A DNA stretch of 64,000 bases from Lingula anatina (Eukaryota > Animalia > Brachiopoda). Positions 4,187-56,000 of the stretch are shown here, piece after piece. The stretch covers positions 10,354,001-10,418,000 of the forward strand of contig CM120641.1 in the NCBI GenBank assembly GCA_051362555.1, in the 5' to 3' direction. Positions within the stretch are counted from its first letter, which is position 1, and every line of letters begins with the position of its first letter. Below the pieces are notes generated by a model. That model had not been told where the DNA came from and did not search any database. It saw nothing but the letters and a program-made list of their open reading frames with translations. A program made the translations under genes and the position numbers.

Positions 4187-5967
4187 AAACTAGACTGCAA
4201 CTGGCTGAAGCCAGTGGCGGAGGATTCCCCTGCAAAATAGGTGTGGAAATGCTCTTACAAGGTCATGTGAAGGTCATGGGTTAAATTTAGCCCCATATTC
4301 TGAAAGAGCATGTGCGAATTGGGGGGGGGGGGCAACAAAACATCACTTTTAGCCCACTTCAATATTTCTCCATGAAATAGCCAAATGACCTTGAAAATGA
4401 GGGTCAAGGTCAAATTTGACATTTGATTTGGGGGTTTTGGGTATATGTTTGGGGTAGTTTATTATAGCATGCTATGACCAAAAACCAGTCTTTCATGGAG
4501 AAATTGCCAAAGTCACGATTTCTGCGATGTCATAAATATTTAAAAATCGATATTAAAAAAAGTAATTAGGCAATCGCTACCAAAGTACGGCTAACCTTAG
4601 ATAAATATATAGGGCATCATTTGCCACTATGATTAGGGCTCTCGGCCTTCCAGTTTTTGAGATCTCGGAAACAAACCTTTTTTGAGCCCGTTTGGCCATT
4701 AGCGACCTTGACCTTGACCTACTTGCATAAAAGTAGGTCATTATCTGTGGATTTGTCTCAGTATCATTGACCATAAGGCCCTTAGCCATATGGCTTATAC
4801 TTTAGGCCTAATGGCAATTTCAAATTTCATAAAATTTGCCTTTTAAAGCCCCTGTGACCTTGAAAAGTAGGTCAAGGTCACTGAAACTGGGTCTGTGGCA
4901 TATTCTTGCCATGGGCTACCTATGATAATTATTTCAGATTTTTTGCGAAAATAAACGCGCGGAAAGAATAATAATAATAAAAACTAGACTGCAACTGGCT
5001 AAAGCCAGTGGCGGAGGATTCCCCTGCAAAATAGGTGTGGAAATGCTCTTACAAGGTTATGTGAAGGTCATGGGTTTAATTTGACCCCATATTCTGAAAG
5101 AGCATGTGCGAATTGGGGGGGGGGGGGGGGTCAACAAAACATCACTTTTAGCCCACTTCAATATTTCTCCATGAAATAGCCGAATGACCTTGAAAATGAG
5201 GGTCAAGGTCAAATTTGACATTTGATTTAGGGGTTTTGGGTATATGTTTGGGGTAGTTTATTATAGCATGCTATGACCAAAAACCAGTGTTTCATGGAGA
5301 AATTGCCAAACTCAAGATTTCTGCGATGTCATAAATATTTAAAAATCTATATTAAAAAATGTAATTAGGCAGTCGCTACCAAAGTATGGCTAACCTTAGA
5401 TAAATATATAGGGCATCATTTGCCACTATGTTCGGGGCTCTGGGCCTTCCAGTTTTTGAGATCTCGGAAACAAACCTTTTTTGAGCCCGTTTGGCCATTA
5501 GGGACCTTGACCTTGACCTACTTGCATAAAAGTAGGTCATTATCTGTGGATTTGGCTCAGTATCATTGGCCATAAGGCCTTTGGCCATATGGCTTATACT
5601 TTAGGCCTAATGGCAATTTCAAATTTTACAAAATATGCCTTTAAAAGCTCCTGTGACCTTGAAAAGTAGGTCAAGGTCACTAAAACTGGGTCTATAGCAT
5701 ATTCTTACCATAGGCTACCTATGTTAATTATTTCAGATTTTTTGCGAAAAAAAACGCGCGGAAAGAATAATAATAACTATAATACTACCAAAAACAATAG
5801 TATTCCCCTATGGGGAATCCTAACTATAATACTACCAAAAACAATAGTATTCCCCTATGGGGAATCCTAATAATAATAATACCAAAAACAATAGTATTCC
5901 CCTATGGGAAATCCTAATAACTATAATACTACCAAAAACAATAGTATTCCCCTATGGGGAATCCTAA
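4187..5967 (-). mobile_element. Two near-identical ~795-bp Helentron-associated non-autonomous elements (HINE, DINE-1-like), nested or tandem, with four tandem 5' heads
   Basis: Bodies begin at 4187 and 4981 (aaactagactgcaactggct). Read on the minus strand: 5' subTIR AGGATTCCCC with short palindrome, (TTA)n microsatellite, core rich in TGACCTTGA/TCAAGGTCA, 3' subTIR GGGGAATCCT, stem-loop ACTGGCT-TC-AGCCAGT and terminal CTAG-TTT. Confidence 0.8.
5777..5967. repeat. Tandem array of four ~47-bp units containing the palindrome attcccc-tat-ggggaat
   Basis: Unit ctataatactaccaaaaacaatagtattcccctatggggaatcctaa at 5777, 5824, ~5871 and 5921. Confidence 0.95.
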
Positions 5968-6445
5968 TAATATTTACAGAGCACACTTGAAAGACAAGTT
6001 TCAAAAATGAAATAAGGTAAGTACTTTTATATGAAATATGATAAAACCTATGAAATACAGTAAACAGATCCACGTGTACTTGTATAATATGTAGCTTTCT
6101 CTTGTGTGAAAGAAACCATATAAGTAATGCTGATGTAGAGTCAGCGCAAAGAACAACAGAAAATTTTTGAGGCCCAATGGCGTGCAACCTTCAGACTTCC
6201 ATGGAGCTATCAAAATTGGGTCTGAAACAAATACTGTTAAATGAACACCGAGATGTTTTAACGGAAGACAATGTCACCAATCCTTTCTCATTTTAGTCAT
6301 TAAAGCCTTTCTGCAAGGAATGTGGTGGGCAAAAATATAGTCCTGAATTCTTAACACAAAGTTAATTCAACTAAAGATTAAACACTTCATAATAAGTAAA
6401 AATGATCCATTGATGGTTGTTTTTGGTTGATTTGTGTTTGTAGCT

Positions 6446-7428
6446 TCATTTCATTTTTTCTCCCTTGGATACAAACTTTCCTGTGACAGCATCTCTCTGC
6501 ACTGCCTTCCATGAGTAAACACAGCCATTCATTGCAATGTATACCCCTTGTCCATTTAAACACTGTAGAGCACCTATGGCAACTCCAACATTGAACTCTG
6601 CGTCTGAGTCTTTGAAAGTATCTGGCTTGAAAGAACCTGTGATGACGATGACTTTATGGCTTAAGTCTTCCTTCCTAGCCAAATATTCTGCAGTCTCTAT
6701 CATGGTATCAGTGCCATGGGTGATAAGGATCTTGCTTTGTGGTGCTTCTCTGCAGGCAAGAAATATGTTGCTCCTTAAAGAAAGAAAAGAAATGAAATTA
6801 CAGTTTATCTGTTAATGAAAACATCATTGACCTCATATGCATAGCAATCACTGGGATTTTGTTATTGTTTTAGACTTATTTTAACTGCCCTCCATCTCAT
6901 TATGAACAGACCTTTTGTTACCATTAAATATCTTAGTCATAAATGCACACCTGTTTTGACTATCATTAAAATGCAAACAGTTTCAAGTTGTGCATTGATT
7001 ACAAAATTGAAACTTTTAACAAAATCAAGGATCTGTTGTGTATGAACCTGTCCTCATCTGTTATGTCTTGGCTATCTTTGCGACAGACAGTTTGATATGT
7101 AATTTGGAAGTTTGTCTGTATTTTGTTGAACATTCTTTCCACTGCTGGCTCACATATCTCAAATGCATATCCCCTTAAAGTCCTAGGGTAGTCCTTGTCT
7201 ATTGTGCCTGAGAATAAAAAATCAAGTGTTGGTTCTATTCAAAAGATGGTAATTTTGGTCATAAAAATAAACACTTAAACATATATTAAAAAGAGTTATT
7301 TATTTATTTAGTTATTTTCATTTTTCTCGGTTTCAATATGAATTTTAAAAAACTTTATATGTTTGGCTCTGTGACGTAGCAAAATATATATAAAAGGGCC
7401 CCCTTGTAATACAACTCTAGATAGCTCG

Positions 7429-7466
<38 letters not shown>

Positions 7467-7538
7467 CGTGCACACATAGTTGCTGCAAATCTGTTTATGT
7501 ACTGCACCTCCAGTTTGAATAGCTAGTATAGTTGACAT
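6446..7538 (-). CDS. Short-chain L-asparaginase (N-terminal asparaginase domain only, RrA-like), 172 aa; exons 7538-7508, 7207-7048, 6773-6446
   Basis: Spliced protein MSTILAIQTGGTIDKDYPRTLRGYAFEICEPAVERMFNKIQTNFQITYQTVCRKDSQDITDEDRSNIFLACREAPQSKILITHGTDTMIETAEYLARKEDLSHKVIVITGSFKPDTFKDSDAEFNVGVAIGALQCLNGQGVYIAMNGCVYSWKAVQRDAVTGKFVSKGEKMK*. Class 1 asparaginase motifs TGGTI, KDS, HGTDTM, TGS and SDA-FN are present. Exons of 31+160+328 = 519 nt form an uninterrupted frame. Confidence 0.92.
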
Positions 7539-7812
7539 TTTTTTGTTTTTTTATTATTTCTTCTGATTACAACCGTACATGTATGCGAGAGCAGCCGCTG
7601 CACTACTTGACACGCCCACTTTTGTGGCTGGCGCCGCAGAATACAGTATTGGGGAATTTACTCACGAGTATAGCGCTTTGGCGTGATGTGAACATTATAT
7701 ATAAATTTTAAAAATCCATATTATTTTATATTTGGTTGATTCAACGAGAAAGTCTCATCCAACCTTGCCATTATTTTCAGATTTCATTTTTATTTCTGCG
7801 GGCTGAAACAAA
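7539..7812. promoter_or_regulatory. Putative bidirectional promoter between the asparaginase (-) and TMX1 (+)
   Basis: The two start codons diverge about 275 bp apart. The gap is locally CpG-rich, has a KLF/Sp-like CACGCCCAC at 7611-7619, and a YY1-like AAAATGGCG overlaps the TMX1 ATG. Confidence 0.7.
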
Positions 7813-10800
7813 ATGGCGACCTCCATTCGTCGGCGAGAAACCGAGATGTTCCTTGTCGTTTTAATCATTTTAGGAATTATCCCAGTCCACAGTGGGACGA
7901 AGACCATTGAGCTTCAAGAAGATAATTGGAGCGACATGTTAGCGGGAGAGTGGATGGTTGAATTGTATGTAAAAGAAACCTACATCTAACAATTTATGTA
8001 CCAATATGATTCCACTGACAGTACTTCGTAAATGAAACTGATGGTTGTATATAGGTAACTGGTTAGACATTGATACATATATTGGGGTTAGTACTTTTAC
8101 ATAAATTATAGTACAGCACAGTCACAGGTAATATTTTACACGGACACCAGAAATAACTTAGTCTATCAGACCATTCACATTAGAAAGTTAACCGCAGTCT
8201 AGTTAACTCCGATTGAATCGCGGTCAACTAAACTGAGATTATTTGCATTCACACTGATACCGGTGTCACGTGAAGAAACCGTCGTCGTGAATAAACCGTT
8301 CTGGCGGATTATTCACGCGGGGGTAGCAGTCAATTGACTTACAGTACGTAGCTGCACATGCATTTCCAACATTTCCCCGTAGAGAAAGTTGTAGTATTAT
8401 CAAATACATGATTTCTTTTTAATGAAAATGACTGAACTCTGAATTGAAAGAACATTGTAGAATGAAAAGATTTATACTACGAGTCTTAGATCTGCCATGT
8501 TTTTTACACAGAGCAAAACAGTTCAGTCACGATCAAAAGCTCACTTCCAACATTCCCCCGTATACTGTAGTAATAAGATTATCAAATATATACTCTCTCA
8601 TGACGAAAACCACTGAATTATGAATTGGAAAATCATAGTTCAGTGCAAACATAGCGCCTACTTAGGACGACATCGTCATACCGGAAGTTACTTCTTTCAA
8701 TCTACCCTCAATGCGCATGTGCAGAACGGTTTCGTCACGGCACGGGTCTATCACGCCACACCGGCAGGGATCAGTAGTGATAGAATTTCAGCAATTGTAC
8801 TTCCTGTTCAGCATGCGCTCTATTGTTCGAATAAGTAAAAATCCGACCCTTTGTATTTACTAGTATATTATTCTATTTCAGATATATGAGTTTACCGCAT
8901 AATGGTGACAAAAGATAAGATACTAATTCTACATGTAGGCACGGCAATACCAATAACCTAAAGCCTATTTTGCAACAGACCATTTTATTCTTGGCACTTC
9001 CTGCTAATTTACGTTGTACCTCACTCTCTGACCATATGGCGAGGAGGCCCTTGACGGCATCCTCAGACCATGATACTCTTTTGCTGCTACTCATACTCAG
9101 AGTACTCAAATAGTTACGAGGATTTCGAAATCAGTTGAATAATTGCCCACTTGTGCACATGCGTTCAATTTTTAAACATCCGGTCTTGACTGCGATTCGG
9201 AGTCAACTCCGATTTAACCCAGCTCCCAGTCTGGGTTTATTTCGACCACGGTCAGGGGTACGTTGTCCGTTCACATTAGAAAAATTAACCGCGATAGGAC
9301 CAAGGTCAGGCCTTGACCGTGGTAGAAAGTGCTAGTGTGAATGGCATAAATATGATATTGATAAATATATCTAAGCTAATACAAATGGTTTATTAGCCTT
9401 TATCAACTGAGCATGGCGTCGTTATGTCCCTGTTTTAGAACTCTTAGACCCCATACAGATGCCATCCGTCTGCTTGATTGGACCAACTCTTCAGGGACTC
9501 TCGCTAAGTGCAATCAGCTGTAAGACAAGTTGCCTTTTGGTTCCCATGTACTGGTGTAATACCAGATAACATGCTACCAGTGGGCCACCGGTGGCTATAA
9601 ACGGCAAACAGCTATCGATGGCCCACTGGCGTACCGCTGGTGGTTAGCTGGTGGTAGATTGCGGTTTATAGCTGCCGGTGCTGCCCACTGGTTGGCCACT
9701 GGTAATGTTGCTGGTGGTCCACTGGTGGCCCATCCGCAATTTTCTGATCGTAATTGTTAAAGGTAGATTTTTTCAAATACATGTACGCGTATTATAATTA
9801 CGTTGCCTTTCCATTACGGCGGATGTGTTTTTCAACCTTTGTTCACTTGTTTCAGAGTGCGCAATATCCTAGCATTTTATTGGCCTATAAAAGTCACGTG
9901 ACATACTGCATGCGATAACTGCTTTTCTGTATTCTGCTTATTCTTCCAAGAGGAAGCATATCATTCAATTTAGCTGTTTGCAATCAGTGAGAGTCTCAAC
10001 AGAATTGGATCCATCCACGTGGACCAATGGTGTCTCTGGGAATGGGTCTTACATGTTACGTATATAATTGTATAATCCAATCATACTTGACCAAGACAAA
10101 CTTTTCCCTGAGACAAGATGTAGGGTTTAGACGAAAGCATTTGTTGTTATGGGTATCATGTTACTGTGTTGCTTCAGTCTCAACTCCACTTTAAAGATGC
10201 ATACAAAGTCAATCTTTTGTCACAAAAACCAACCAAATGCCAGCATATAGTTTCAAGTAGTATAACTAAGAGAATTACCAAAAGGCATTGTTTAATTTTA
10301 CCCGAAAGTGATGTTTGAACAGATTTTTCTGCTAGCATTCTATGCTGTATGTCAATGGGGCAGGAAAGTATGTCACGAAAGTAGGTTAAATTTACAACCA
10401 AAAATTTAAAGAAAGGAGCAGTCTAAAGGTATTTTATGGCTGATCGAGTGATCTTTTCAGTTTATCCCTTGGCATGTTGAATTTATTTGAGTCATATAAG
10501 AATCTAGTAGAAGTGGTTTACATGTGTTACTGGGAACCCACGTTCCACCGATGCTCGGTTCGTATGTACCTTTAAGTTTTTTCCAGTAGAAAGTTCAGAG
10601 CAAAGTGACACAGAAGAGAAATATTTTAAGCCACATCACTCTTGCCTCTACTTGAACTATTTAAATGCTTTAAATTGATCTGAGTAGCATGTAGGATTTT
10701 ATGGGCCATCGTAGCTTTTGATATAATAGCTAGTGAATTCAAGAATTTTTGCAAATCTATGGCCTACTAGTAACCACACCAATCCATGTTAAATAAGTGT

Positions 10801-13099
10801 GCTAGACTAGAAATTGGGCTACATCATCCATTGTTAATCTGAATTCCTTGTCTGTTTATACCAAAGTGTTTTTAAATATGAATCACTTTCTCATACACTG
10901 GTACAGTGTGGTGATGATACCAACTGCATACAAATTTACGGTATCTTAAGTATTCGTTACATGTATGTGTCAAACAATTCCTCACTTGAAATTGGATTTG
11001 TTAAAGTGAATAAGATACTTCAAAATGTTCTTAAATTAAACAAATTATCATTTTTAGAATGTAGGGTTTAAACTGCAGTAAATATTATGATTGGTTATAT
11101 TGCTTGATGAATTTAAACATAGTTCATGTACCAGAGTATAAGGGACCATTCCCAGACCCTATCATACTAACTGTAGATAGATCTACCTCCAAGGGAATTC
11201 TCGCTAAATTGCAATCAACTTAAGCAGCGTAGATGTCTGTCACGCCTAATGAAGCTGCTAGGGGGTAATTAATTATCGTTTAGCAGCTTCAGTAGGCATG
11301 TCAAACATGTAAGCTGCTTAAGCTGATCGCAATTTAGCGAGAAACTCCTTGGAGATGGATCAATCCTGTGAGATCGATCTAGGTATGGAAACCCAGTCTA
11401 AAAGACAAATTTGTATGTTTTTATACCCCAAAACGATATCATGATCCTTTTGTCAGTTGTAGATTTTATATTACAAATAATTTTTTGACAAAATTAATAA
11501 AGTTTTCTCTCTGTGTTTTGTATATTTTCACTCACAGGCAAAGTTCATAAGAGAATCTCAATTTTAACAAGCTTACAATTTTTGTAGAAAGTCTCTGGTC
11601 TTTTTTTTTCTTTTCTTTCTTTTTTTATTTTAAGCATTATGTAGGCAATTTTGACTTGACTTGAATTCGCTTTGATTTGTAAATTACAGTCATTCATCTC
11701 ATATAATGTGCTTATAGGCATATACATTATATTCTTTAGAAATTGAAATAATGGCATAAAGAATGGCTACATGGTATCAGACTCAGTTTGTAGTAGTTAG
11801 TTGTTAAATAAGTAAAAAAAGAATTGTTACAGTACAGTGAGTAGAATAATACTTCTATTTTTGATAGTCACTCACTATTGAAACTAATGTCATTGCACCT
11901 AAGGTTAGGTGACAGATAAGATCTGTTGGCTAACAACCAGGCCAATTATTGTGCACAAACTGGGTGGGTGGCTGGGTGGATGGTACAGGCATACATGACT
12001 AAGTAGCTTATGTCTTGCAAAATTTCCACATTTTAGGTTTTTAGCTTGTTAGCTTGTCTATAGGATTTTTTAACAATAAAAATGCAACTATATTAGAGTG
12101 AAGCCAACATTTAGACTTTCACCACATTTTCATTTAGGGGGATAACAACTGTTCAGTTTGGCAAAAAATGGATTTCCCTGGGGTAAAGGGCAATTTTCCC
12201 ATTCTTACCAATGGTTAATGAATCCATTTGACATCCAAAGTTAGTCCCTTTTTTTTTTTTTTTTTTAAGTCTGGCTTTTTGCAATATTCTCTTATTAAGA
12301 GATTATTACATAGTGTGTCCATCTATGGAGATCACATGATGTAATGGCAAGTACGCGATGTTGGTGGTAAAATAGAATATATTATATTTCTGTGAGTTGT
12401 TTACAATGTATTTATTGTGAAATATGGAAACCATACGAACAGTTGTTATTCCATTCAAGATTATGTATGTTTTATAATTTTGGATTTGCAATGTATGAGG
12501 AAATATTTTTTGCTGTTTAGCAATCTAACACTGATAGCTTGTGAAGCAAGCTGCTGCTTTCTTACGCATATGCCAACGCAATATGCCAACGAGACAGTAA
12601 CTTTGCTAGTCAATAAATCCTGTAGACTATTGGTGATTATCACTTACTTTTGCCAGATGTGGGCAACACTCAGTTAGCTAAAAGCTTCTTTTTTTCTGTG
12701 TGTTTGTGTGTGATTTAGTTGATTCCCTTGGTCTGTGTGTGTCTTTTAGATAGTGTATTTAAGTGCCTTTACACCACTATCAGAAGAAGGAACTCCTATG
12801 ATTGTGTCCATGTTTGACAAGAAACCAAATTACTATGTTTCTTGACTGAAAATGTCATGGGTCAGAATTGAAATGATTAGTTATAATATTGTGCTTTGTT
12901 ATATGTGCAGATTGGTAAGACTGTTATCTTGTACAAGGACTTTTTTCCAGAATTTTTATGTCAAACTTGATTGATTTTTTTAAGCTACACAGAAATGTGA
13001 AAATTGGGAATTTTGTCAATCCTCTTCTTCAGTCCATGCTAAATGTACCTTTACAATACCCATATTTAAAGTTAAAGATTCACACATGCTGCTCCCTCC

Positions 13100-13164
<65 letters not shown>

Positions 13165-16100
13165 ACCTCTAACCTAATTTTACATAACAGTGACTATTAA
13201 TAAATTCCATATTACGTCATATGAATATTTTATTTATTTACATTTATTTATTTATATTTTTAATATATGTGTATTTTTTTTTCAGAATTGATTATTTTAT
13301 TTGAGTTAGTATTAATGATCGTTACAGCTATGCACCATGGTGTCCAGCTTGCCAGGCATTAGAACCAACCTGGGACCAGTTTGCAGGCTGGGGAAAGGAT
13401 CTAGATATCAATGTCGCTAAAGTGGATGTCACACAAAATCCAGGTATTTCATGCACATTTGAAGCTAATGCTTCAAGATTGCTTTTTACCAAAATTTGAA
13501 CTAAAGGGAAAGGTTCTTAAAAATTACAAATGGAGGCAGGAATGAATTGAAATCTGTAACATAGGTTCAAAAGTTTGATTCTGTTTGGCAAAAAAGATAC
13601 AATGTTTTTATATATACATATATTATGTATGTATGTGTGTTTGTAAAGTATCAAAAATAATAGAAGTCAGAGTTTTTCAAACCAGCAATTAGCCTTATTT
13701 ACAATTAAAAAGTTGAGTTTATAATTCATACAAGGACTGGTATTATTGAGAGTCCATATGTTATCTAGTCCCATTGATTGATTGAAAAAAATGATTTTTC
13801 TCAAAGGCAAATTTTTATCTAAGATTTGCCTGGAGATAAGAAAAATGGAATCTGATTTCAGAATTTGAAGGATTTCAGAGTCACTTTGTCTTAAATCAAT
13901 GTCAAAGAGAAATTTGATCAGTGCATTGGTTTACCTTGTTAATGAAATTACCTTTTGTGTGGAGGACTGACCTTTTGTGACAGCAGATCATGCATGACAG
14001 TTTATACTATTAAAGGTAATTTTCCCTCTTAGCTGAGACTGATACTAGATTTTCCACTCTTTTTAACGATTCCAAATCTAAATTTACTTGACATTTTCTT
14101 TTCTTATCTCTTTATAGGACTGAGTGGAAGGTTTCTTGTCACTGCCTTGCCAACAATTTACCAGTAAGTTCAATAAGAACTATCGTTTGTCTAGAGGTAG
14201 AAAGTACTTTTTTGACAGTGGTTCCTGAACCATCTGCTTGGAATACCTTATTTAGATATATTGGCATTTTATGTTACTATCTATGGTATATGCCTTGATA
14301 TATATTTTAATACTTGTTTGCTCTAGATATCTGTCTGTGATGGTTAATATATACTTCTTATATTTCACAATCCAAAAAACTGCCTGTCCCAGTCAGCTTT
14401 TGTTACCTACATATACTAGTAAAATGTAAAAAAGTAGAGATATTTGACAAGCACATATATTTCCTTATCCATAAAGCTTTAGGAGCAGATGGGAAGTTTA
14501 TAGCTTCTTTTAAGATCGTCTTTTAACATTTCTATACTTAATTTCAGTGTTAAAGATGGAGTGTTTCGTGTTTACCTTGGCTCCAGGAATGAGAAGGACT
14601 TAATAGGTTTTGTAGATGACAAACAGTGGAAAGATCTGGATCCAGTACCTTGGTACATGTCCCCGGGAGCGCTACAGTAAGGATTAAAAACAACATAATC
14701 ACACCCAGACCAGGACTAACTTAAAGCAAAAGAAGACTTATTGATGTCACCACATCAGATTGCTTTTTTTTTTTTTTTTTTTTTAAGAGTAAAAAGACTC
14801 TGTGCATATTGTTTTTGTCTGGTAACATCTGTGATCTGTGAGACAATTTTCCAGCCTAAGTTAGTTCAGTTGTTGAGAAGCCTTTGTTGTAAATTTGGTC
14901 AAAATACAGGTGTAACTTTACGAAAATATGTTACAACAAAAATTGTAACAGGTCATGAAATGGCAAAAACTACACCATCAGTAAGGTCATGTTAAAATTG
15001 TAAGTCTTTACTATGTATGTTTTATATGGTATATTAATTGTCTTGTGCACAGTTAAACCAATCACATGTATTGATTGTATTGTTTTTTTTTTCAGCATGT
15101 CTGTCTTGAGCATGTTTTTTAGGCTATCCATGTTAGTTAGGGTGAGTATCGCACAGACAATTCTTTCCTGTTTGGTAAGAATGAGTAAACCAGTGTCTAA
15201 ATGAAGCAATTCAAGGGAACAATAAATATATTTTCACTTTCCAGCATTACATTTTAAAGACGTTATTCGATTATTGTTAATTTCACAAATGAGAGGTCTG
15301 TACACTTCTTCGGAACTGTTAGGCCTGTAGCCAGAGATTTCAAAAAGAAGATTGTTTTGTTTTTTTTTACCTATTTACCCCCTTACTTGGCCTAATTTGA
15401 GAAATGTCATAGAACCTAGGGCAATATTGATTTAGTACAGACCTTTTCTGGACAAAAGGGAAGTTAATTGAACATCTCCCCCCACCCCCCACCCCCCACC
15501 CCACCCCCACCAAAAAAATCACTACAGGCCTGACTGTAGTGTGAACAACCTTGTAGACATGGCTTATGGCATAACCTATGTATAATTTAATTAGGACAAG
15601 TGAAAGTGCATTTGTAATCATTTTAGAACATGGAGATTGGTGCATTCTCTTGTGAATTCTCTAACATTTGACATTTCAGGATTGCCCTTTTACATGGCTT
15701 ACATTTTACATGAACTCAGATTAAAAATAGATAAAAGAAAAAAATGATAATTGAGATTTTTATTTCATTTACTAGAAAAAACAAAAGTCATTTAAATGGT
15801 TTACAGCACTTTCAAGCTTTTAGAAAGATCAGAGAGCATCTGATGATACAGATGTGTTTGAAGTCACCACATGCCCTGTAGAAAAAAAATGCCCCGGGGT
15901 TTTCTGTAGTTATACTACATACCGACCAGATGTGACATTAGAAAACTATTGCTACACCAGTATATTGATCTTTTCATAGAAAATTTCTAAAAACAAAGTT
16001 GAAACTGTCTGATTTCAACACTTTTATCTGAACCCTAGCTCCAAGCTTTCGATGACTAAGGACTGAGATGAGGTAGGCTTCAGAAAAAATGCGTATAAAT

Positions 16101-19100
16101 CAGTTTTAACTTAAAATGTTTCAATAACTGCACACTACTATACAGATTAATTTCCATCAGAAGACTTGAGACTTTCCTCAATATTTCCAGACTATCCATA
16201 ATAATATGACAGAGCTGTACAATGTGCCCACCTGGGGCTCCTACCTCCTGTTTGCAGTAGTCACCATCATGGCAGGATTGATACTGGGACTGGTGAGTGA
16301 GATGTGCTGGACCTGGACCTCTGTTTCTGTTAAAGAAATGCCTCTCAGTCTGTCCATCCAACTGTCCACTTGTCTGTCTGTCTGTCTGTCTGTCCTTCCA
16401 CTTTGACCAATTTAAGATAAATCAGTAGTAGGCCAGAAGTTGAATGTTGTAATTGTTTTATAACAAGACCTCTTCTTACACAATTTGTCAACTATCAATT
16501 AATCTGTAACTTAAGTGGATCAAGTATTTGGTTTAAATGTTCAGACCAATTTCTTTTGGTCAACTCCCACACTCTGCATGAGGTGAAAATCCCTACATAG
16601 CTATAAAAACACTCCTCTACTGCAATTGATAATGACATGTATGCCGTTATGCCAATGACACTGCTGATACTGATACATTATATATGAAGTAATTAGTTGA
16701 TGGAACCCACACACCAAGGGCATAAATGTAGTCTATAATGTACATAGTATATGAAGTATTAGTGTTACATCAATGATTATGTCTGTGGGGAATTATGTGA
16801 TGCATATTATATTGGATAGGTCAGTTGATGTAAAGTAGGCTTTCAGATACAAGTTGTCTACTGGCAAAGGATTGTTGTACTCTGTTGCTACTTTAGCAAC
16901 GTTTTTGTTTTAGCTACATTGCTGAGTGTGAGAGTGGGACCTTTAGTCAAAACATTAATGATATGAAACATGAAATGTTTATCCTTTTTCATTAGATAAA
17001 ATAATCTATTTTGAAATTGATGTGCAAATTTGTTAGTGATGTTATAAATCTAGTAATTAATTGTGTGTGTGTGTGTGTGTGTTCTAGTTAATGTTTAAGC
17101 CAAGATCCTTATGATTTAAATCTGTCCTCCAAGACTTGTGAATATGGAATTATATTACGTGGACCAAAGCACAATTTGATCTTAGATCAGTTAAGTGTTC
17201 TGAGAACCTTGCAACTACCTTTTCCATTCCAAAACTAATGGTTCAGAACAGATTATATTAAATGTCAAAAATTGTATGCAACAAAAACAGTAGTAAAAAA
17301 AAAAAAAAACTCTTTCTCCCTCATCTATTTCAAGGGCCTGGTATTATGTTGTGACTGTCTTTTCCCACCAAGACCAGCAGTATACTTGAAAAAAAAAGAT
17401 GATGACTATTTACCAGAGGACAGCAGTGGCAGAAACACCAGTGCTAATTCTAGGGTGGGTATATTTTATATTGCAAATTTTTCTTATAGACTAAGCTAAC
17501 CTTTTATCTGCCTTCTCACATTGTGTTGTATGTTAGCATAATATTGGAACTTAAGCATTATGTTTTGAAAGGTTCTTCCTTGAAATTACAGGGGGCTTAT
17601 CGCACTTTCACAAATTAAATTCACTTCTTACTATTTGGACAGAAGTTAAACCTGAAGCGAGGGCTCTTTAACAAAGTAAATAGTAAAAATATGACAGGCA
17701 ATGAGGAAAGATTCTCTAGTTTTTGTTTATCAATTGGCAATGCCATGCGTGAGAATTCTGTTTGGGTGATTTTCTTGCATAACAGCCAGACTGTGAAACT
17801 GTCAGTTTCTCATAACAGAACATTGAGTGGAATGCTAAGATATATAACGCTCAATAATGTAAAAATGTTGAACAGTTTCATTAGCTATTGTTTTAAATAG
17901 ACCAGTTAAGATTCATTTGTCAATAGCTATAGCAAAAAATTAAAGGAGGGGCAAGGAGATGAGGGGGCACCTGACTGAACCAGCACACGTGAGGGGTGAT
18001 AGGTGGTAATACCTATCACAGCCCCCATTTCCCTGGTGAAGTCTGACTGTCAGCAGACAAAATATTGGCTGGTAAATATCAGTCAGTTTTTTTTTTTTTT
18101 TTGTAACTATTGACAAAAAACTTAATGGCCGATTCCGATTGTGTGTTTAAAGGCATTAATGATTTTTAACCTATATTAAGCTATCTCGTCTTAAAGGGAC
18201 AGGTGTTAAGGATTGATAAGGCAGCTTCATAGATTTGATGTCACTCTAGGTCACTTTCTCTCATTTTACCCAGCTTTACCCCATCTTTTTTCAGTTCAAT
18301 ACTGCAACCTTGTTAATTTATCTGCCTTGTAATTATCTGCCTTGAGACTATTTACTTTATTCTGTACCAAATTATTGATTTGATAGATGATGAGTTCAGA
18401 ACAAATATAAAAATACATTACTTATGAAATGTCAACCTTGTAACACATTGCACATCACTAATTGACTGCAATGACTTGCAAAATACAGTCCTGTGTGCTT
18501 GAGAGCATGCAGGATCATTAAATATGTAAGTTAACATTTCAACATCCCCTGCTATCATATCTCTGAGGCAGGTTGAACAAAATGCATGTTGACTTTTTTC
18601 AACAAAGTAATTAATCTACTTGGAGTATGAGGGACAAGTATTTTGTTTCTTAATAAAATATGGTTTGTCTTTGCTGAAAATAACTCATACATGCTTTGTA
18701 TAAATATTTAAACTTCATTAGTTTGATAAAATTGAATGAAATTGGAGATTAAACACTCAGGACATAAATTGTAATGAATAGCTGCCAAAACCATAAAGAG
18801 CTTTCTGGAAAATGTGTTTAGACACCACTAGAATGCTGAGTGAATGACTAGGTTGAAGTTGACCAAGGATCCAACATAATACGCTATGTCAGATCCTATA
18901 GTTGTCATAGAACATTCAGGGAAATTTAATGTAAACGCTATTGGGAATCAGTTTCCATTACATAGTGTTTCCTTCTGATAATTTCCCCCTTTATCTGTAT
19001 CAAAAAATATCTGAACTTTTTAATGTAAAAAAAAATTAAATATATATAGCAAGTGGTAAAGAAAAAATAGCTGGATAAAGGTTAGTACTAATATTGAATT

Positions 19101-46365: not shown

Positions 46366-49300
46366 TCAAGCTTTGTAAACTCACACAAATATACAGCCTC
46401 AGTCAAGTACGGAGCTTTGTTAGTATCATATTAACTTTTTTCTATTTTCATTTAAGTTTTATTTTATGGAATTTTCACCGCGGTGAAAATAATTTTCACC
46501 ACGGTGAAAATAATTTACACCGCGGTGAAAATAATTTACACCGCGGTGGGAATTAATTTTCACCGCGGTGGAAAATAATTTTCACCGCGGTGGTAATTCC
46601 TGGCCATCTCGGCCCGGGTGATGAATAGGTAATGAGAACCTTACATTTGCCAGATTCCGTCACGGTGCATGCTATTGTTACATACACACAAGGTTGGTGG
46701 ATCTGTTCGTGGTGCCACTGCCGTTAAATATATTTGTGATGTGTTTCTTAGATCTTATCTTAATAGATGTAATATCGGTTTCTTCGGAAAGGTTTCTTTC
46801 TACCAATATTCCCAATAATACACAAGTTATTATAAAGGGAAAAGCCACGTACAACATTGCAGCATTTCGGTGATTTTTAATCTATTCGAATACTGCCCGC
46901 TTCCTCCAGATTACTGGGATGATTGGCACATAGACGGTTAAACCGCGTGCATGTGCATGTGCTTGTCTTTATCAACGTCCTTTCCAGACATCTGGTAAAT
47001 GTTGGATTCGTATAACCTACATGTATGCATTACCCGGGCCAAGATGGCCAGGAATTACCACCGCGGTGAAAATTATTTTCCACCCCGGTGTAAATTATTT
47101 TCCACCGCGGTGTAGATTATTTTTCACCACGGTGAAAATAATTTTCACCGCGGTAGAAATAATTTTCACCTCGGTGAAAATTCCTTAACATAAAACTTAA
47201 ATGAAAATAAAAAAAGTTAATACGATACTAACAAAGCTCCGTAGTCAAGCTTTTTTTTTTCTTTATTACAGACAGCAGTTTTCTCCTAGCCAACGCTCAG
47301 ATTGTTGATTACCCCATTGTCTACTGCAATGAAGGTTTCTGTAAACTGTCGGGCTACACCCGGGCGGAGGTTATGCAGAAGAGCTGTAACTGTGCTTTCA
47401 TGCACGGTGAGCGGACAGACCCGGACACCGTTACCCAAATCCAGACGGCTCTGGAAGAATGGGAACAGATCCAAGTGGAAATACTGCTTTATAAAAAGAA
47501 CAGTAAGGTTCTTCTTGATGCCGATGAAAATATGTGGGAAACTATCGAACCAATTTTTTCGAACTTTGGTCTACTAAGTTTAAAATTGCAAATCTAATTA
47601 CGTCTTTCTGGTATCTCTGTAATGTTCAGACAATAATTCCCTTTTCCTATTGAACTAATTCAATATTTGCCAATCTATGACGTGTTTTGAATTTGATAGT
47701 CAATTTGTAACATTATTTCTGTGACCTCTAAACGTTTTTCTTTAGATCGTCACTCTCAGATACAACTATATTGCGAAAGGACAAAAATGATCAATCATGT
47801 TTTATTACGTCTTGACCATCTCCCTTATTCTTTAAGGGGGGCATGCACTGCTATCAGGGACACCACTTTGGCTCATGGAACACGTGGCACCTATCAAAAA
47901 TGAAAAGGACCAAGTTGTATTGTTTCTTTTGACATTCAAGGACATCACTGCTTTGAAACGACCCATATGCGAAGACGACGGAAAGGGTAAGTGCAGTGGA
48001 GATAGAAACTGTGGTGACATTTCTACGACAGCACAGTTAAAAGTATGGAAGGAAAGCAATCTTTCACGAGCTGTTTTCACCAGTTCACGCCTCATTGCCT
48101 TTGTGTAAGGATAGAAATGAATGTGAAACTTAGCAATGAAATTAGTTCTTTTCTGTACAAAAGTAAATTGAAAAAATACTGATTGAACATGAGGTGTTTA
48201 CGTCACCATCCTTCACGATGACATCTATGGGTGTCAAGGGACATATAAAACGCAAGTTATTTCATTTTGAGTGGTTATCGTAATTTATCCGAGACAAGTA
48301 GTTTCTTTACATTAATCGCTGACTAAATTACACAGCTTGGATACTGAATTCAATTTAATTTGAACGCCAAACGATAACAACATGCGCTGGTTGTGTTCTT
48401 TAAGAAAACTGGAAATGTTCGAACCCATGGATCATTTTAAAGCGATATCCTGTGGCAAAACGTAATCAAGTTTTTTTTAATTGATTTTAATGAAACACAT
48501 GTTGCATCTATTTTAGAGGAATCATAGGTTTAACACAGTTTGTCAATTATCAAAACGTACTGTCATATTTTTCAGGGTTGAGTAAGTTTGCCAGACTTGC
48601 TCGGTCAGTTACAAGAAATAAATCTGTTGTACTGCAGTATTCGAACCAGCTGCAAGCCCCTGCTACCACCTCGAAAATTCCTCAAGACAACAACAGACCC
48701 TTTTCTTTGGCGCACGTAAGTACTATCTTTCTTATTGTTTAAAATGATTCTTATGTTACAATCGTGGTTTCCGCAACAGGGGGTTGATGAAATGATCTGG
48801 CAGGGGTAAACATGTAGCTGCTCTATTTGATTGCAGTTTAGTTAGATCTACTTGTGCTATACTTGTGCAGATAACATTTTTCAAATTTTGTAACACACAC
48901 ACACACACACACACACTCAGAGAGAGAGAGAGAGAGAGAGTGTATAGTGATTTGTGTATAAATTCCAATTGTAGAGTTAACTATGACGCTTTTGTCCTTT
49001 AAACCCCGCGTTTGAAATAAAAAATCTAGTAAATATACATGAAGCAACAAGTAAAAGAGGTAAATACTTGTTGCAATAGTCGTGCGAAGACTGGTGATGT
49101 GAGGTTTAAAACAAGGTTCCAAACGACAGCAGTCTATTATTATTTTATTATTGATAAATCAAATGTAACATCGTCAAAAACAAAGTCCCCGTCCAATTCC
49201 AAAAACGCAAAAGCTTAAATGCCTCCCGAGACGCGTGTCTGATTCAAGGTACCGAAAAGCCGATTCATCATGTGGAATAATGAAATTATTGATGCGGTGT

Positions 49301-52300
49301 GCCAAGGTGTATAAGCTTAAGACACGTAACATTGGTTTGTCTGCTGTAAGTCAATACACACGGAAAAATCTTAGTTATCACTGTACACTTGTCAGTTACC
49401 ATGACAACTGCATGCAACGTCAGGCAAGGGATCAAACTGACAATGGTTGTTTAACCCACCATTTAAAGGCAATATGCCATTAAGTCATTGGTCTGGAAAT
49501 CTGTTCAAGTTTAAGGTCGCCTTATTAACGCTGGCAAACGTTGCGCCTCCCAGTCAACAAGAGATGGTTCAATAGTTAGTCTAGTTCAAGCCTCTGCCAC
49601 ATGTTTTGAACAATTGTTTAACATGAGAGCTGTAAGATTTTTCAGGGTTTTTTTATTAATCTTTCTTGTGCTAATATGATGAAAAGTATCCAACAGGACT
49701 CATTTTCATGGAAAATTGCCTGAGAAGCCCAAACGGATGAAAAATGATTTTTGGGGAGGGGGGATATTAGGAAAATGATTCTTTGAATTGGTTTGAATTG
49801 GCTTGTTATCCTACTCATTTTGGAATGTATTGTTATAAATGTTAAATTATAAAATTTAAATAAAATTGGGAATATGAACATTGTAAATAACCCATATTCA
49901 ACAAATTTAAGATTATTTCAATAAACAGTTGCTTTTCTAGAACTAGAATTTTCTACAATCGACTCGTAGTTTAAAATGGTTGCTGGACTGACCTGGTTTA
50001 CAAGTCACCCATGAAAAATTCTCAGAATATGAGGCTGGGATCCTAATAACTGTGTAATTTCACTTATAAATTTTCTACAAAGAGCTCTTATTTAAACCTC
50101 AAATCGTATATTTGTCAAAACAAACAAATTATTCCGATATCGATATTCCATAATAATCTGGAAACATTTAACTGTAGTTGACTAAAGTATGGAAGAAGGG
50201 GAGGATGAGGTCATTTATCAGAAATGAAACTGAGGCTATAATAGAAACGGCAGATAACTGGATGAAAAAATACCCCTTAATCCATATTTTGGATCTGTTT
50301 TTCCTAACAAGGGAAAATAACGTTACGTATTTCTTAAAAAGGAACAAAACACATACAACCAACAACGCAGTAAGTTTTATTTTGGATCTGTTGGATTCAG
50401 TCAGTCGAAATATTCAGTTTCAGACATAATGACTTAGCTGACTGTGTAATTTAGACTTGAGCACGACGTTCTGCAGAGCTTAATGCATCACTTGAATTAC
50501 TACAAAGGTGTGGATCAAAGTAATATTCAATTAAGTTTTGACTTATACTGGAAACAAATACACAAGTGATACGAGAACTTCATTTAATGGGAAGACTAGG
50601 TGTCACCTAAGCGCTTGATAATTTCGTCAACACAATAGATATTGCTGATGTTAATTTTGAAAATCAATATCTCTAATGGAAAGGCGTGCTACCGTTAATT
50701 CCTGGTAACTAAAACGTGGTTACTCTTGGTTTTCTTCCATTCAGTTTGAAAGTCGATTCCATACACCTCCAGCGAGTATGAAGGTAAATGGTTGCCAGAA
50801 ACGCAGGGTGTTCATATACACACCAAAAGGCATACATCGCTGCTGGGTTTACTGAGCCCATTATCTACCCATGTCACCGGAAGTTTCTTTACAGAGATGG
50901 AGAATTCCATTAGGCATCAAAAGAATGGAGATCGTTTTTAAAAAGTCTTTTGCATGACAGATTTCAATGCTTGACTTCAAAGAAAGCATTGCCTAATGAA
51001 CTCCGGAATACCTGCATTCTTTACTCTCCAGTGTCAACTTTCCGGTTTTTATCTGCTTTTGCTGGAACTTAAATATGACAGATAAATGGAGAAAATTATT
51101 GACTGTTCCCTTTAAACAATTTTGGTTAAATAGTGATTTATAATTCCTTTGTGTATGTGCTCCTTAGTCACACATAAGCTGTGTGTGTTTAGGCTCAGAC
51201 GACATCCCCTAGGAAATTACTGGGCAAATGTGTCAGTCTGCGTAACGTTCTGTGTTGATAAACGGGATATACTAATGGTGGATAAGTGAGTAATAACACA
51301 CTTCCCGTCATTTATAAATCATACCGCTTCTTGTTGTATTCCCTTGTTGTTTAGAAATAATTTTAATGTAGGGATATCCTTTCTCATTACTGCAAGGAAA
51401 CTTCAAGCTCCCAAAAATATATCGTTCATTTGTAAACCCCATATTTCCTTGTTACTTTCCGTTAATGATTTTTAATGAAAACATTCTTAACCGACATCGG
51501 TAAGAAGCCTCTTAGATGCATCTCGGGTTTCAGTCTTGGAGTCACCGCTAAATAAGCAATATCCCTTTTGTGGTGCAGTTATTGGAAACCGCACTGGAGA
51601 AGTGGTTGTGTTACAAAAACAAAAAAAAAAAAAAAAAACAAAAAAAAAACAAAAGCCGACACTCGAGATTGCGAAAAACGTAACAACAAATGTCTTCATA
51701 GTTACATTTATAAATCTCACATGATTTGTATTTTCCACGAGGCTTACTGCCTCGTGACCACGCAAATGTTCTGTTTCTTACTATTCATGCTGTGCTGGTA
51801 TTACTCTGCTTTCCACCATTATAATCATCCGTTTAATTAAAACAATACGTATCATTATGTTGACACGGTTAACCTATGCCCTATCATGTACAAACCGCAC
51901 TTTTCTTTTTTTTAACTTTCAGATAATGAACTTTAATGCTGACATCCTACCTCAATACCGCCAAGAAGCCCCCAAGACCCCACCACACATCATACTTCAC
52001 TACTGTGCATTCAAAGCCACTTGGGATTGGATTATTTTAATATTGACGTTCTACACGGCCGTAATGGTTCCTTATAACGTGGCATTTAGGAGTAAAACTA
52101 TGGACGGCGTGGGATTGCTCGTGGTGGACAGTATAGTGGATGTGGTGTTTTTCGTTGATATCATACTCAATTTCCATACAACATTTGTTGGCCCTGGGGG
52201 AGAAATAGTGTCCGATCCAAAAATAATACGAATGAACTATTTGAAAAGCTGGTTTGTTATAGATCTCCTCTCCTGTCTCCCGTATGATGTCTTTAATGCA

Positions 52301-53052
52301 TTCCAACACGTAGATGAAGTAAGTTGCCAGTTGGAAGTTTGGTTTGAAATAAGTGTAATGTAACAGAATATTTTTAATCGTTGATATTTCAATAATGAAA
52401 AACATTTCGCTTTTTTTTTAGATAATTGTAAAATCCATAGATTAATATCATAAACACGATGATTTGCAAACTTTAAATGTATTACAAAATACAAAACCCA
52501 TTCTAATATGTCCAGAAGTCGATTATATCAAACTTCACTTCCAGAGCATCAGCAGTATATTCAGTGCCTTAAAAGTGGTTCGCCTCCTTCGGTTGGGGCG
52601 GGTAGTTCGTAAATTGGACCACTACTTAGAATATGGAGCAGCAGTCCTGGTAATCTTGGTATTCTGCTTTGTCCTGGTGGCCCACTGGTTCGCCTGTCTC
52701 TGGTACAGTATAGGCATGACGGAGGTCCAGAGTGGCCTGGCTTTCGGATGGCTTCAGTTGTTGGCCAACAGAACCCAGCAGCCGTTCTATCAGACTAACT
52801 CTACCGGTGAGTTTGAGGGAGGACCGAGCAAAGATATGAGCTACGTCACTGCCCTGTATTTCACGCTGTCGTGCATGACCAGTGTTGGATTTGGCAATGT
52901 AGCAGCAAACACTATGCTGGAGAAAGGGTTTACCATCCTCATGATGATCGCTGGATGTAAGTATACGACCATAACTTGATATCAGAATAATTTAAGAGAC
53001 TCTTTTTTTCTCTTTTTAGAGAAAAAGTTATATCAACCAGTTCATATATCCC

Positions 53053-53092
<40 letters not shown>

Positions 53093-56000
53093 ATTATTGA
53101 CGACAGGAGTCAGAGATGTTTCTTAAGGAAGCATCCAAATATTTTGGACGTTATATATATTTTATTCCTTGATTTTATGTTACAAAGTGGCGCATGAGAC
53201 CTAAATCTTCGTATATTAATTGTTTTCTAAATGAAAGGGGGAGGGGGCTAAGCAAAAAGCATTGTATAACACCTGTTGCATAAGTCTGAGATCATAGCCT
53301 ACCACTTCCGGTACATGTTCCACTCACAATCAATAGTTCACGTCTTCCAATAGGTTTCGCTTTCAGTTAGTGATTGTTTTTATTCTTAGAAAAGAAAGAT
53401 ATATCATTTTAACATATTGCAAATGGCAGAGTACACAATGGACCTACAAAAGACATGCAAAGGTCAGAAAGCCGGTGGAAGATCATTAGTGAAAGTCTTA
53501 GTCTACATGCTGCTGACACATGGTCGTCTATGTGAAAAACGTCTACGTATTGCACTCTAATAAGGGTCAATGAAGGGCGAAAACGTTTACAATGCAAATC
53601 CAGTACATAAAGAAATCTATTTATCCTTTCTAACAGGTTAATTCTAGTTCAAGGACTGATAATCTTAAAAACAAGATAAAACTGGTAGTGGTAATGCCTT
53701 TTAGAATAAAAAAGATCGGTCTTTGGGTAGAAATTCTAACTTTTAAGGTGTATTCTTATTCCCGCATTCTCTATTGCGGTTCTTACGCAACATGGGATAT
53801 AACGAAAATGCTTTGAGGATGGTTGACGTCTGTGTTCCATATTAAACATCTACAATTACATTACAGTAGCATATTTTAGCTTATAAAATATCCCAACGCA
53901 TATAAAACATATAGGCCTACGCGTTTCAAAATGAGCTTATCTTAAGTTTACAACTTCCTTCTCTTAAAAATATATATAATTGGCTTCCGCCATCTTCTAT
54001 ATTTGATTACAATTCTCAGTTTCGCAATCCCTGCATAGAATAAAACCATAGACACACGTTGCCAACGGTATTAATTGTTTGCTGTATATAAGCCTGACGT
54101 TATTTCGATTGCAATATACACTAATTGCGCGGATACCAACAGTAACAAGGGTTTCATTCCGGCTTGTCTATGTAGCAATTCCCTCCACTGCTGCCTTTCA
54201 CCGGCACGACACTGGGGACCTGTCAACACGATTGCCAACACTTGTTCTCTGACCATCGGTTCCCTCTTATGCGGCACTTAAAATTGATTAAGTTACTTCC
54301 CACAGGAATTCTCTATCATAGACTTTTCTGTGAGCACTACGGAAGTTCAAACATGGGCCTGAAACCGTCACCAGGCAATGATGGTAATAAGGCAGATTTA
54401 TGGTCGGAAGATACTCACGCTACACTTATGATTTGGTTGATTTCTACAATGATATTTTTTTGCAATGCGACCCAGAAATAAGTTCATTTTGAATTCTCTG
54501 ACATCCTACCAGTAATATACACTTTGCATGAAAAGAGTTCAGCGTGGAAACAAGCAAACAAACAAACAAACAAACAAACAAACAAATAAATAAGTATTAA
54601 AATAAGACACCCAAGCTCGAATTATGCCCTTGTGTTTCATTTAAGCAATAACAAGCTTTGTATGTGTCTCGTCAAAGAGACAATTGTTTACATTTCTGTT
54701 GCCCCGAAGGAAACTCATTTTCGCCTTCTCCAGTTACGTGTAATATGGAATGTCAATCTTATTTTATTTTGTCAAGAATGACATTAGATAACGGGTAAAC
54801 TCGGGTAATCTCAACGTGCTTCCAAACACCAAGATTCAGCACATTGAAGTGAATAATCAACACTCTTACGCGGCCCAGCGTTGGCCTCATTTATTTCAAG
54901 AAAATACTGTTGGATACCTACCGCGATTAAGTAGAGGAAATACCACCTAGCTTCTTAAAAGGTGACACGATTTTCCCATTATGTTACAAATCAAAGAAAA
55001 TTTCTGAATAAGACAAGACCTGTGACTTTTTCTTAAATTTTCCTGTAATTGAAGTGGTATTCATGAGTAGAATCATTGTCCTTTTAGCGGAATGTAAGTT
55101 GAGATGCACTTATTAGTGGTCTATTTTAAGTGCTAGATAAAAGGGTTTGGAACCTGTTTATTGATGAAGTACATTGACATTCTATTGTTTTCAAATATCA
55201 ATTCTATTGTATCAAAAATCTACCAATTTTAAGGGTAACTTGTATTTTTTAATTTAGTCACGCATAGCGAACATAAATCACTAGTTCCAGTGAGGTATAA
55301 TTATGGCATGCAGTACGGGTTGACAGGGCACATTAGGACATCAACGTCGTTTAAAAAACTGGATTTTACATTTGAAATCTTCGAATAGTATAAATGATTT
55401 TATTAATTTTCGAAGATAAAGACATTTACATAACATTTTAAAACGTTGTGACTATCACATTTTTTCGATTTAGCATGGATTATTTAGTGTGTTCTCTGAG
55501 TATCACGTTCTCTTCGTTTGCTCTCATTGTTTATAATCGGTTGCTATGAAACATTACCCGCAAACAGTCGCCTTGTAAATCTCACTACGCACAAAGAAGA
55601 TACAATTACTCATTTAATAATAAAAAACTTATCGTATATCATTCCCATGCGTATATTTTCCTTTTTTTCAGCATTACTCTATGCAACCATTTTTGGAAAT
55701 GTCACCACCATCTTTCAACAAATCACTTCATCTACAGCGCGCTATCACGAGATGCTGAATAGCGTTCGAGAATTTATGAAACTCCATGATGTTCCTAAGG
55801 CTCTCGGAGAACGCGTAATGGATTACGTCGTATCCACCTGGGCTGTAACAAAGGGCATTGATACAGCAAAGGTAATTAAGGGCTGACATCATATAAGAAC
55901 ATTTGGTAAAAATAACATTAACATTTCCTTCTTTAGCAAATGCTTTACATTGTGATGAGTGCAAGTTATACTTTGTTTCAAACGCTAATGAGGGGCGGAG

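Follow-up and report, generated by a model that had tools for sequence, protein, structure and literature searches.

The 64-kb window, by which we mean the whole stretch of Lingula anatina DNA that was analysed, carries on its minus strand a three-exon gene for a small protein of the asparaginase class. The joined coding exons (31 + 160 + 328 = 519 nt) encode 172 amino acids and a stop, and an in-frame stop lies immediately 5' of the initiating ATG. The features of the gene, in window coordinates, are given below; RrA is the short-chain asparaginase of Rhodospirillum rubrum.

7508..7538, minus strand: coding part of exon 1 (31 nt), with the ATG at 7538, residues 1-10 and the first base of the Gly11 codon
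7208..7507, minus strand: intron 1 (300 nt, GT..AG), phase 1 within Gly11, with a GA microsatellite inside
7048..7207, minus strand: exon 2 (160 nt), with the predicted nucleophile Thr12, Lys15, Tyr17-Pro18, Tyr24 and Asp55-Ser56-Gln57
6774..7047, minus strand: intron 2 (274 nt, GT..AG), phase 2 within Arg64
6446..6773, minus strand: coding part of exon 3 (328 nt including the stop), with Thr85-Asp86 and Arg157
6494..6496, minus strand: codon of Arg157, at the position of the RrA catalytic Lys158
6050..6445, minus strand: 3' untranslated region, its end approximate, with continuous same-orientation RNA depth in three of four runs and no joint
7539..7812, no strand: intergenic spacer, 274 bp from ATG to ATG, between the asparaginase gene and a divergent TMX-type thioredoxin gene

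Phase compatibility alone is weak evidence for such a splice model, since open frames also arose from 455 of the 12,240 GT/AG combinations tried, and RNA reads were therefore needed. Both intron donors fit the usual consensus poorly. Four RNA-seq runs bearing the same species label were used, with about 6-25% of each run read; three of them are stranded. The 274-nt joint (6772/7047) occurs in all four runs (13, 1, 2 and 17 reads) and the 300-nt joint (7206/7507) in three of the four (5, 0, 1 and 3 reads), and RNA depth is about zero across both introns. Depth extends 5' to about 7600. In the three stranded runs the reads are oriented opposite to those of the plus-strand neighbour, and coverage continues some 400 nt beyond the stop, to about 6050, with no further splice joint listed there at the partial read depth of these runs. 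The joints, together with the lack of an onward one, indicate that the gene is expressed as predicted and, at this depth, is not spliced into a C-terminal domain. The sequence-only reading of this DNA had proposed three phase-compatible exons and an intact 172-residue product, and had named onward splicing into a C-terminal domain as an outcome that would refute it; the RNA joints confirm the former, and no such splicing is seen at this depth.

RefSeq already holds an L. anatina protein of 172 residues, XP_013415002.1 (our P0001), annotated as "L-asparaginase 1", which differs from the window at one position: residue 22 is Gly in RefSeq and Arg in the window, and no variant is listed at that residue in reads from the four runs. 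Variants in the RNA reads at 6477, 6661, 6671, 6695 and 6761 comprise two synonymous and three non-synonymous changes (K163M, S102G and E90D), all of them away from the active-site residues; in run X7, three sites differ in every read. A tblastn search found no second copy of the gene in the 64-kb window.

The surroundings are those of an ordinary animal contig, not of contamination. Head to head with the asparaginase gene lies a spliced gene for a TMX-type thioredoxin membrane protein (7813-17500, plus strand), with higher RNA coverage and a PF00085 match on its exon at 13329-13445. Read orientations are opposite on the two sides of the spacer, which is likely to be a bidirectional promoter. 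Further along, at 47232-59987 on the plus strand, PAS, pore and cyclic-nucleotide-binding (cNMP) exons define a voltage-gated potassium channel gene, putatively of the EAG family to judge from its PAS and cNMP domains. On the 3' side of the asparaginase gene there is a duplicated segment of about 800 bp (about 4250-5000 and 5050-5750) and a tandem repeat with a unit of about 50-56 bp at 5780-5970, onto which RNA reads from elsewhere map.

Pfam places PF00710 over residues 4-155 of the protein (E 1.7e-21) and finds otherwise one weak, sub-threshold match; PF17763 and ankyrin are not among the domains it lists for the 172 residues. N-terminal hydropathy is low (best 11-residue value 1.15) and the domain begins at residue 4, which suggests that there is no signal peptide. 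The architecture expected from the sequence, an N-terminal domain with no C-terminal domain, ankyrins or signal peptide, thus stands. In the available text of PMC10949315, short-chain asparaginases (scASNases) are cytoplasmic, are 160-185 residues long and form tetramers through their active-site loops, and RrA has 172 residues; the available text of PMC12951835 files them as class 1 type s and notes a Thr-Lys-Asp triad. The Lingula protein, at 172 residues (family range about 160-185), with PF00710 only and no onward splicing, falls within the size and domain bounds of the family. RrA is its best match in a PDB sequence search (E 1.7e-26, the best long class 1 enzyme reaching 1.6e-9), in a profile search (4.6e-35, against 3.7e-16 for the next family) and in a structure comparison (Z 22.6, rmsd 2.5 over 160 residues; next family Z 18.6). 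The predicted monomer has a pLDDT of 82.5 and a TM score of 0.82 to RrA; its active-site loop is modelled poorly, with pLDDT below 50 at residues 16-18, 20-22 and 24-27. In sequence and predicted fold the protein is nearer RrA than the type I and II enzymes, in agreement with the earlier proposal of a single-domain, RrA-like gene.

Animal ASPG joins a class 1 N-terminal domain to a C-terminal domain, and a gene that holds the N-terminal domain only could be read as the truncated or mis-predicted 5' half of such a two-domain asparaginase. We find this scarcely credible. At the depth read, the RNA reads show no onward splicing and refute it; the NCBIfam type I and type II models (TIGR00519/TIGR00520) give 52-54 bits against cut-offs of 260-314; PF17763 is listed in none of the 36 longer homologs scanned; and RrA is a much nearer relative of the protein than any long enzyme. 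The C-terminal domain, the length of at least 300 residues and the model scores that define type I and II enzymes are all lacking here. With E. coli AnsA (type I) and AnsB (type II) and animal ASPG the protein shares a homologous N-terminal domain, the GGT and HGTDT motifs, PF00710 and the fold (Z about 17-18), whereas those long enzymes have a C-terminal domain and the triad lysine (seven of seven checked) and no Lys15 motif. A quick tree without RrA, which carried a long-branch warning, parts short sequences from long ones at SH-aLRT 95.

The protein and RrA share, besides the 172-residue length, restriction to the N-terminal domain, lack of a signal peptide, the predicted fold and 34-37% identity. 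The RrA site comprises, in the available text of PMC10949315, Thr16, Lys19, Tyr21, Asp57, Ser58, Thr87, Asp88 and Lys158. The first seven correspond to Lingula Thr12, Lys15, Tyr17, Asp55, Ser56, Thr85 and Asp86, so that the predicted nucleophile (Thr12), the Thr85-Asp86 pair, the substrate-binding pair Asp55-Ser56, and counterparts of the family-specific Lys19 and loop Tyr21 are all in place. The eighth differs: Lys158 aligns without gaps to Arg157 (PDB 8uoo and the K158M mutant chain 8upc), and the canonical class 1 Thr-Lys-Asp triad (RrA 87-158-88) is therefore absent. The RrA motifs and length given in the sequence-only reading are all borne out by the 8uoo alignment, but that reading missed the swap, and because the catalytic lysine of RrA is an arginine here, activity cannot be assumed from motif colinearity. 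The active-site loop also differs from that of RrA. It has two extra residues and contains Tyr-Pro as well as another conserved aromatic, Tyr24; for the trans-acting Asn26 of RrA there is no conserved equivalent; and Gln57 comes after Asp-Ser. Again unlike RrA, the Lingula gene is eukaryotic and has two introns, and the activity and tetramer of its product are predictions.

In the same register, Lys occupies column 157 in seven of seven long class 1 enzymes, as it does in the three short relatives from bacteria or archaea that were checked; over 496 aligned domains the column is Arg in 359 and Lys in 116. The residue goes with the loop. Among 497 rows (19 of them with gaps), those with the Tyr-Pro loop and aromatic 24 have Arg in 343 of 361 cases (Lys in 8, other residues in 10), and Lys is found in 104 of the 117 rows that lack that loop type; the rows being related, this association is one subfamily signature and not independent covariation. 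Across 40 named eukaryotic homologs, fragments and duplicates excluded, Arg157 is present in 39 (the exception, Lottia, has Lys), Thr12 and Lys15 in 39 each, and Tyr17, Pro18, Asp55, Ser56, Thr85 and Asp86 in all 40. That the site is conserved across animals as distant as sponges and chordates implies that selection has kept it intact. Judged from these alignments, Arg157 and the Tyr-Pro loop mark an uncharacterised subfamily. Lys158 is described in the available text of PMC10949315 as only moderately conserved in the family, so Arg157 sets the protein apart from the RrA subtype but leaves it inside the sequence family. The alignment published in that paper may already show the arginine; a term search of its three text supplements gave no match.

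The same available text reports that RrA K158M has no activity and that K19 mutants retain 0.08-1.06%, from which it follows that the second lysine (Lys15 here) matters. With the triad lysine essential in RrA, Arg157 might leave the protein feeble or inactive, its role being that of an Asn/Asp-binding sensor or regulatory module, and among the 36 longer homologs scanned the domain is indeed fused to dual-specificity-phosphatase-like, p25-alpha, RRM, Myb and zf-BED domains. Several of these fusions, however, are known from one gene model each and could be artefacts of annotation. The two catalytic threonines are conserved, as are Asp86 and Lys15; bacterial members lie in catabolic operons; and the Lys at 157 in Lottia and in 8 of 361 loop-type sequences suggests that Arg and Lys are interchangeable. 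We consider loss of activity improbable.

Other arrangements of the domain were seen along the way. The dual-specificity-phosphatase-like fusion accounts for 10 of the 36 longer homologs (P0297, P0302, P0313, P0315, P0319, P0337, P0361, P0389, P0411 and P0424); these come partly from marine metagenomes and are probably algal. Four chains (P0222, P0310, P0316 and P0384) carry tandem short asparaginase domains, possibly a covalent form of the tight dimer. Two plasmid-borne Lys-type short asparaginases adjoin, respectively, an o-succinylbenzoate-synthase-like gene of the enolase family (Roseovarius, L081:343-1992) and an NhaC-family transporter (Halalkalicoccus, L082:1-1971).

Named animal homologs come from sponges (Corticium and two Oscarella), molluscs, an annelid, a flatworm, nematodes, a tardigrade, echinoderms, hemichordates, amphioxus and a tunicate, which with the brachiopod we take to make ten animal phyla; the named protists are Norrisiella, Biecheleria and Incisomonas. 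A search of representatives at 50% identity gave 2527 matches at E ≤0.001, 150 of which were listed. Vertebrate, insect, cnidarian, fungal and land-plant names do not occur among the matches listed (the best 120 of up to about 8000 per search, with 30 proteins looked up). The ESM Atlas returned bacterial PF00710 clusters only and is uninformative on range. Prokaryotic relatives at 43-60% identity belong to Bacteroidota, Ignavibacteria, CPR bacteria and several archaeal groups (the best 80 of 567 confirmed), and among the matches listed the best animal ones are interleaved with prokaryotic ones at 55-62% identity.

The main tree has 55 rows and 163 columns. It omits 38 of 93 rows: the long class 1 outgroups, near-duplicates, and rows on long branches, Mesorhabditis, Fasciolopsis and Ramazzottius among them; neither RrA nor any ASPG sequence was in the trees. 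The 18 named animals all share a branch, of moderate and unstarred support (85/86), to which Incisomonas and one further protein also belong. A branch of 28 rows takes in every named eukaryote, along with two prokaryotic loci and two rows of unassigned domain (91/81). Support is starred for the groups of sponges, bivalves and starfish. Forcing animal monophyly (animals plus P0121) raised lnL by 7 units (p-AU 0.71) and forcing monophyly of the 24 eukaryotic or putatively eukaryotic rows gave a p-AU of 0.51, neither being rejected; joining Lingula to its closest prokaryote, L001, cost 26 lnL units (p-AU 0.11) and was not rejected either. By these AU results the trees alone fix neither origin nor donor; they favour, but do not prove, a single animal origin. 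A FastTree of 504 rows placed Ramazzottius apart from the other animals. When four long class 1 enzymes served as outgroup the root fell inside the molluscs, under a long-branch warning, a placement that we judged an artefact.

Intron positions offer evidence that bears on vertical descent independently of the trees. We searched with a DNA pattern in which the Gly11 codon must be interrupted by a splice acceptor, so that intron 1 was selected by the pattern and intron 2 was not. The pattern was found in six metagenome contigs, which represent four distinct genes, and in none of the other 89 loci. The position of intron 1 is shared by L091, L092 and L095, and its acceptor side also by L094; all four distinct genes have a GT donor in the Arg64 codon, at the identical phase-2 position. 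L095 has the same three-exon layout (31, 160 and 304 nt), exons 1 and 2 being identical in length to those of Lingula, and lies in the eukaryote-rich branch without a close sister. Gene models of Lottia, Asterias, Amphiura and Pinctada start or diverge at the Gly11 boundary, in indirect agreement. The gene likely goes back at least as far as the common ancestor of sponges and bilaterians.

If the brachiopod lineage had acquired the gene fairly recently from a bacterium or archaeon, and its introns later, this might account for the roughly 60% identity to prokaryotic proteins, for a GC3 of 0.40 against 0.45-0.62 in four exons of the neighbouring channel gene, and for an AU test that did not reject Lingula with L001. 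Yet homologs occur in ten animal phyla, the tree resolves subgroups of sponges, bivalves and starfish with starred support, and the two introns sit at shared positions, down to the 31- and 160-nt exons of L095, which makes such a transfer very improbable; distribution and shared introns largely refute it. The sequence-only reading had offered two origins, and the lineage-specific one, horizontal acquisition followed by intronisation, is weakly supported at best. The other, an ancient and patchily retained gene, fits homologs that run from sponges to chordates and into three protist groups, and introns both shared with four eukaryotic genes.

We give a probability of about 60% to the following reading: that this spliced, expressed host gene encodes a 172-residue protein of the scASNase family, likely inherited vertically since the earliest animals, which is predicted to be a cytosolic, low-affinity enzyme converting L-asparagine to aspartate and ammonia. 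Direct evidence covers the structure and expression of the gene, its family, the conservation of active-site residues and the change from Lys to Arg. If RrA is a guide, four protomers would assemble through their active-site loops, and Thr12 would attack the side-chain amide of asparagine to form an acyl-enzyme while Asp55, Ser56 and Asp86 hold the alpha-amino-acid end of the substrate; Thr85 would then position the water for deacylation. The available description of scASNases has the tyrosine supplied in trans at the tetramer loops, with negligible glutaminase activity. Because arginine is a poor base, Lys15 and the remodelled loop (Tyr17-Pro18...Tyr24) would do a larger share of the proton transfer now that the triad lysine is missing, and Arg157 may mainly pair with Asp86.

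The true substrate might instead be an asparagine analogue, most plausibly beta-hydroxyasparagine from the turnover of hydroxylated proteins, or D-asparagine, with L-asparagine a side substrate of the Arg-type subfamily. The Arg-type short asparaginases of Bacteroidota, Ignavibacteria, CPR bacteria and archaea (L001-L080) resemble the Lingula protein at 43-60% identity, the closest having the Tyr-Pro loop, aromatic 24 and Arg157; they differ in being intronless and, in one subclade, in their linkage to a BhcB/serine-racemase-like gene and Rid. By motif, 13 of 80 prokaryotic loci (16 by cluster membership) have a PLP gene of the serine-racemase family downstream on the same strand, either 0-48 bp away or with one Rid gene in between, and a Rid imine deaminase is present in 7 of the 80. 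The best NCBIfam matches of the PLP enzyme are the beta-hydroxyaspartate dehydratase BhcB and threo-3-hydroxyaspartate ammonia-lyase. A known pathway runs from the amide through hydroxyaspartate and iminosuccinate to oxaloacetate, and these neighbours would complete it. E. coli AnsA, moreover, hydrolyses erythro-beta-hydroxyasparagine according to the available text of PMC8071972.

Against an analogue substrate, the PLP neighbours score below the BhcB and ammonia-lyase cut-offs, and the linkage is limited to a single subclade, made up mostly of Bacteroidota and frequently carrying Trp at position 24, so that it may reflect a single event. That subclade is not reliably sister to the eukaryotes, and the other prokaryotic loci of the 80 have no shared neighbour of that kind. 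We therefore hold the analogue reading to be possible but unlikely. The operon is worth recording in its own right: in Bacteroidota an Arg-type short asparaginase, an optional Rid gene and a BhcB/serine-racemase-like gene directly downstream occur together in L020, L022, L044, L050, L055, L061 and L062, and likewise in L066, L068, L074, L076, L078 and L080, an arrangement that suggests a catabolic route for hydroxyasparagine or hydroxyaspartate. In the literature searched we found no characterised prokaryotic Arg-type member. A doubtful but broader proposition is that Arg-type short amidohydrolases, common to animals from sponges to chordates, many protists and diverse prokaryotes, might use the second lysine in place of the triad lysine and clear beta-hydroxyasparagine or another asparagine analogue.

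RrA has a Km of 2.9-3.6 mM for L-asparagine and a kcat of about 58 per s in the available text of PMC10949315. That text also places members of the family in eukarya, "as will be shown in a separate study". Our search covered the open literature, subscription journals lying outside its scope, and found neither that study nor any characterised eukaryotic or Arg-type member, Arg-type class 1 asparaginase or Lys-to-Arg mutant. To call this an overlooked class, as the sequence-only reading did, was thus an overstatement, given the automatic RefSeq annotation and the RrA authors' statement on eukaryotic members, but it was right in so far as no characterisation was found. Novelty is partial: the gene belongs to an animal branch of a known family, and what is distinctive is the subfamily-wide replacement of a catalytic lysine.

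The therapeutic interest suggested earlier is limited by the millimolar Km of RrA, and such relevance would be small unless the Km of the animal enzyme lay far below that value. For animal biology, the known asparagine amidases of animals are ASPG and the Ntn-type enzymes, and the gene described here would be a third type. For the family, a natural Lys-to-Arg change at a residue essential in RrA amounts to a direct test of the class 1 mechanism. If the Arg-type enzyme is active, the Thr-Lys-Asp triad would not be universal, and the role of the family-specific second lysine could be probed with a few mutants.
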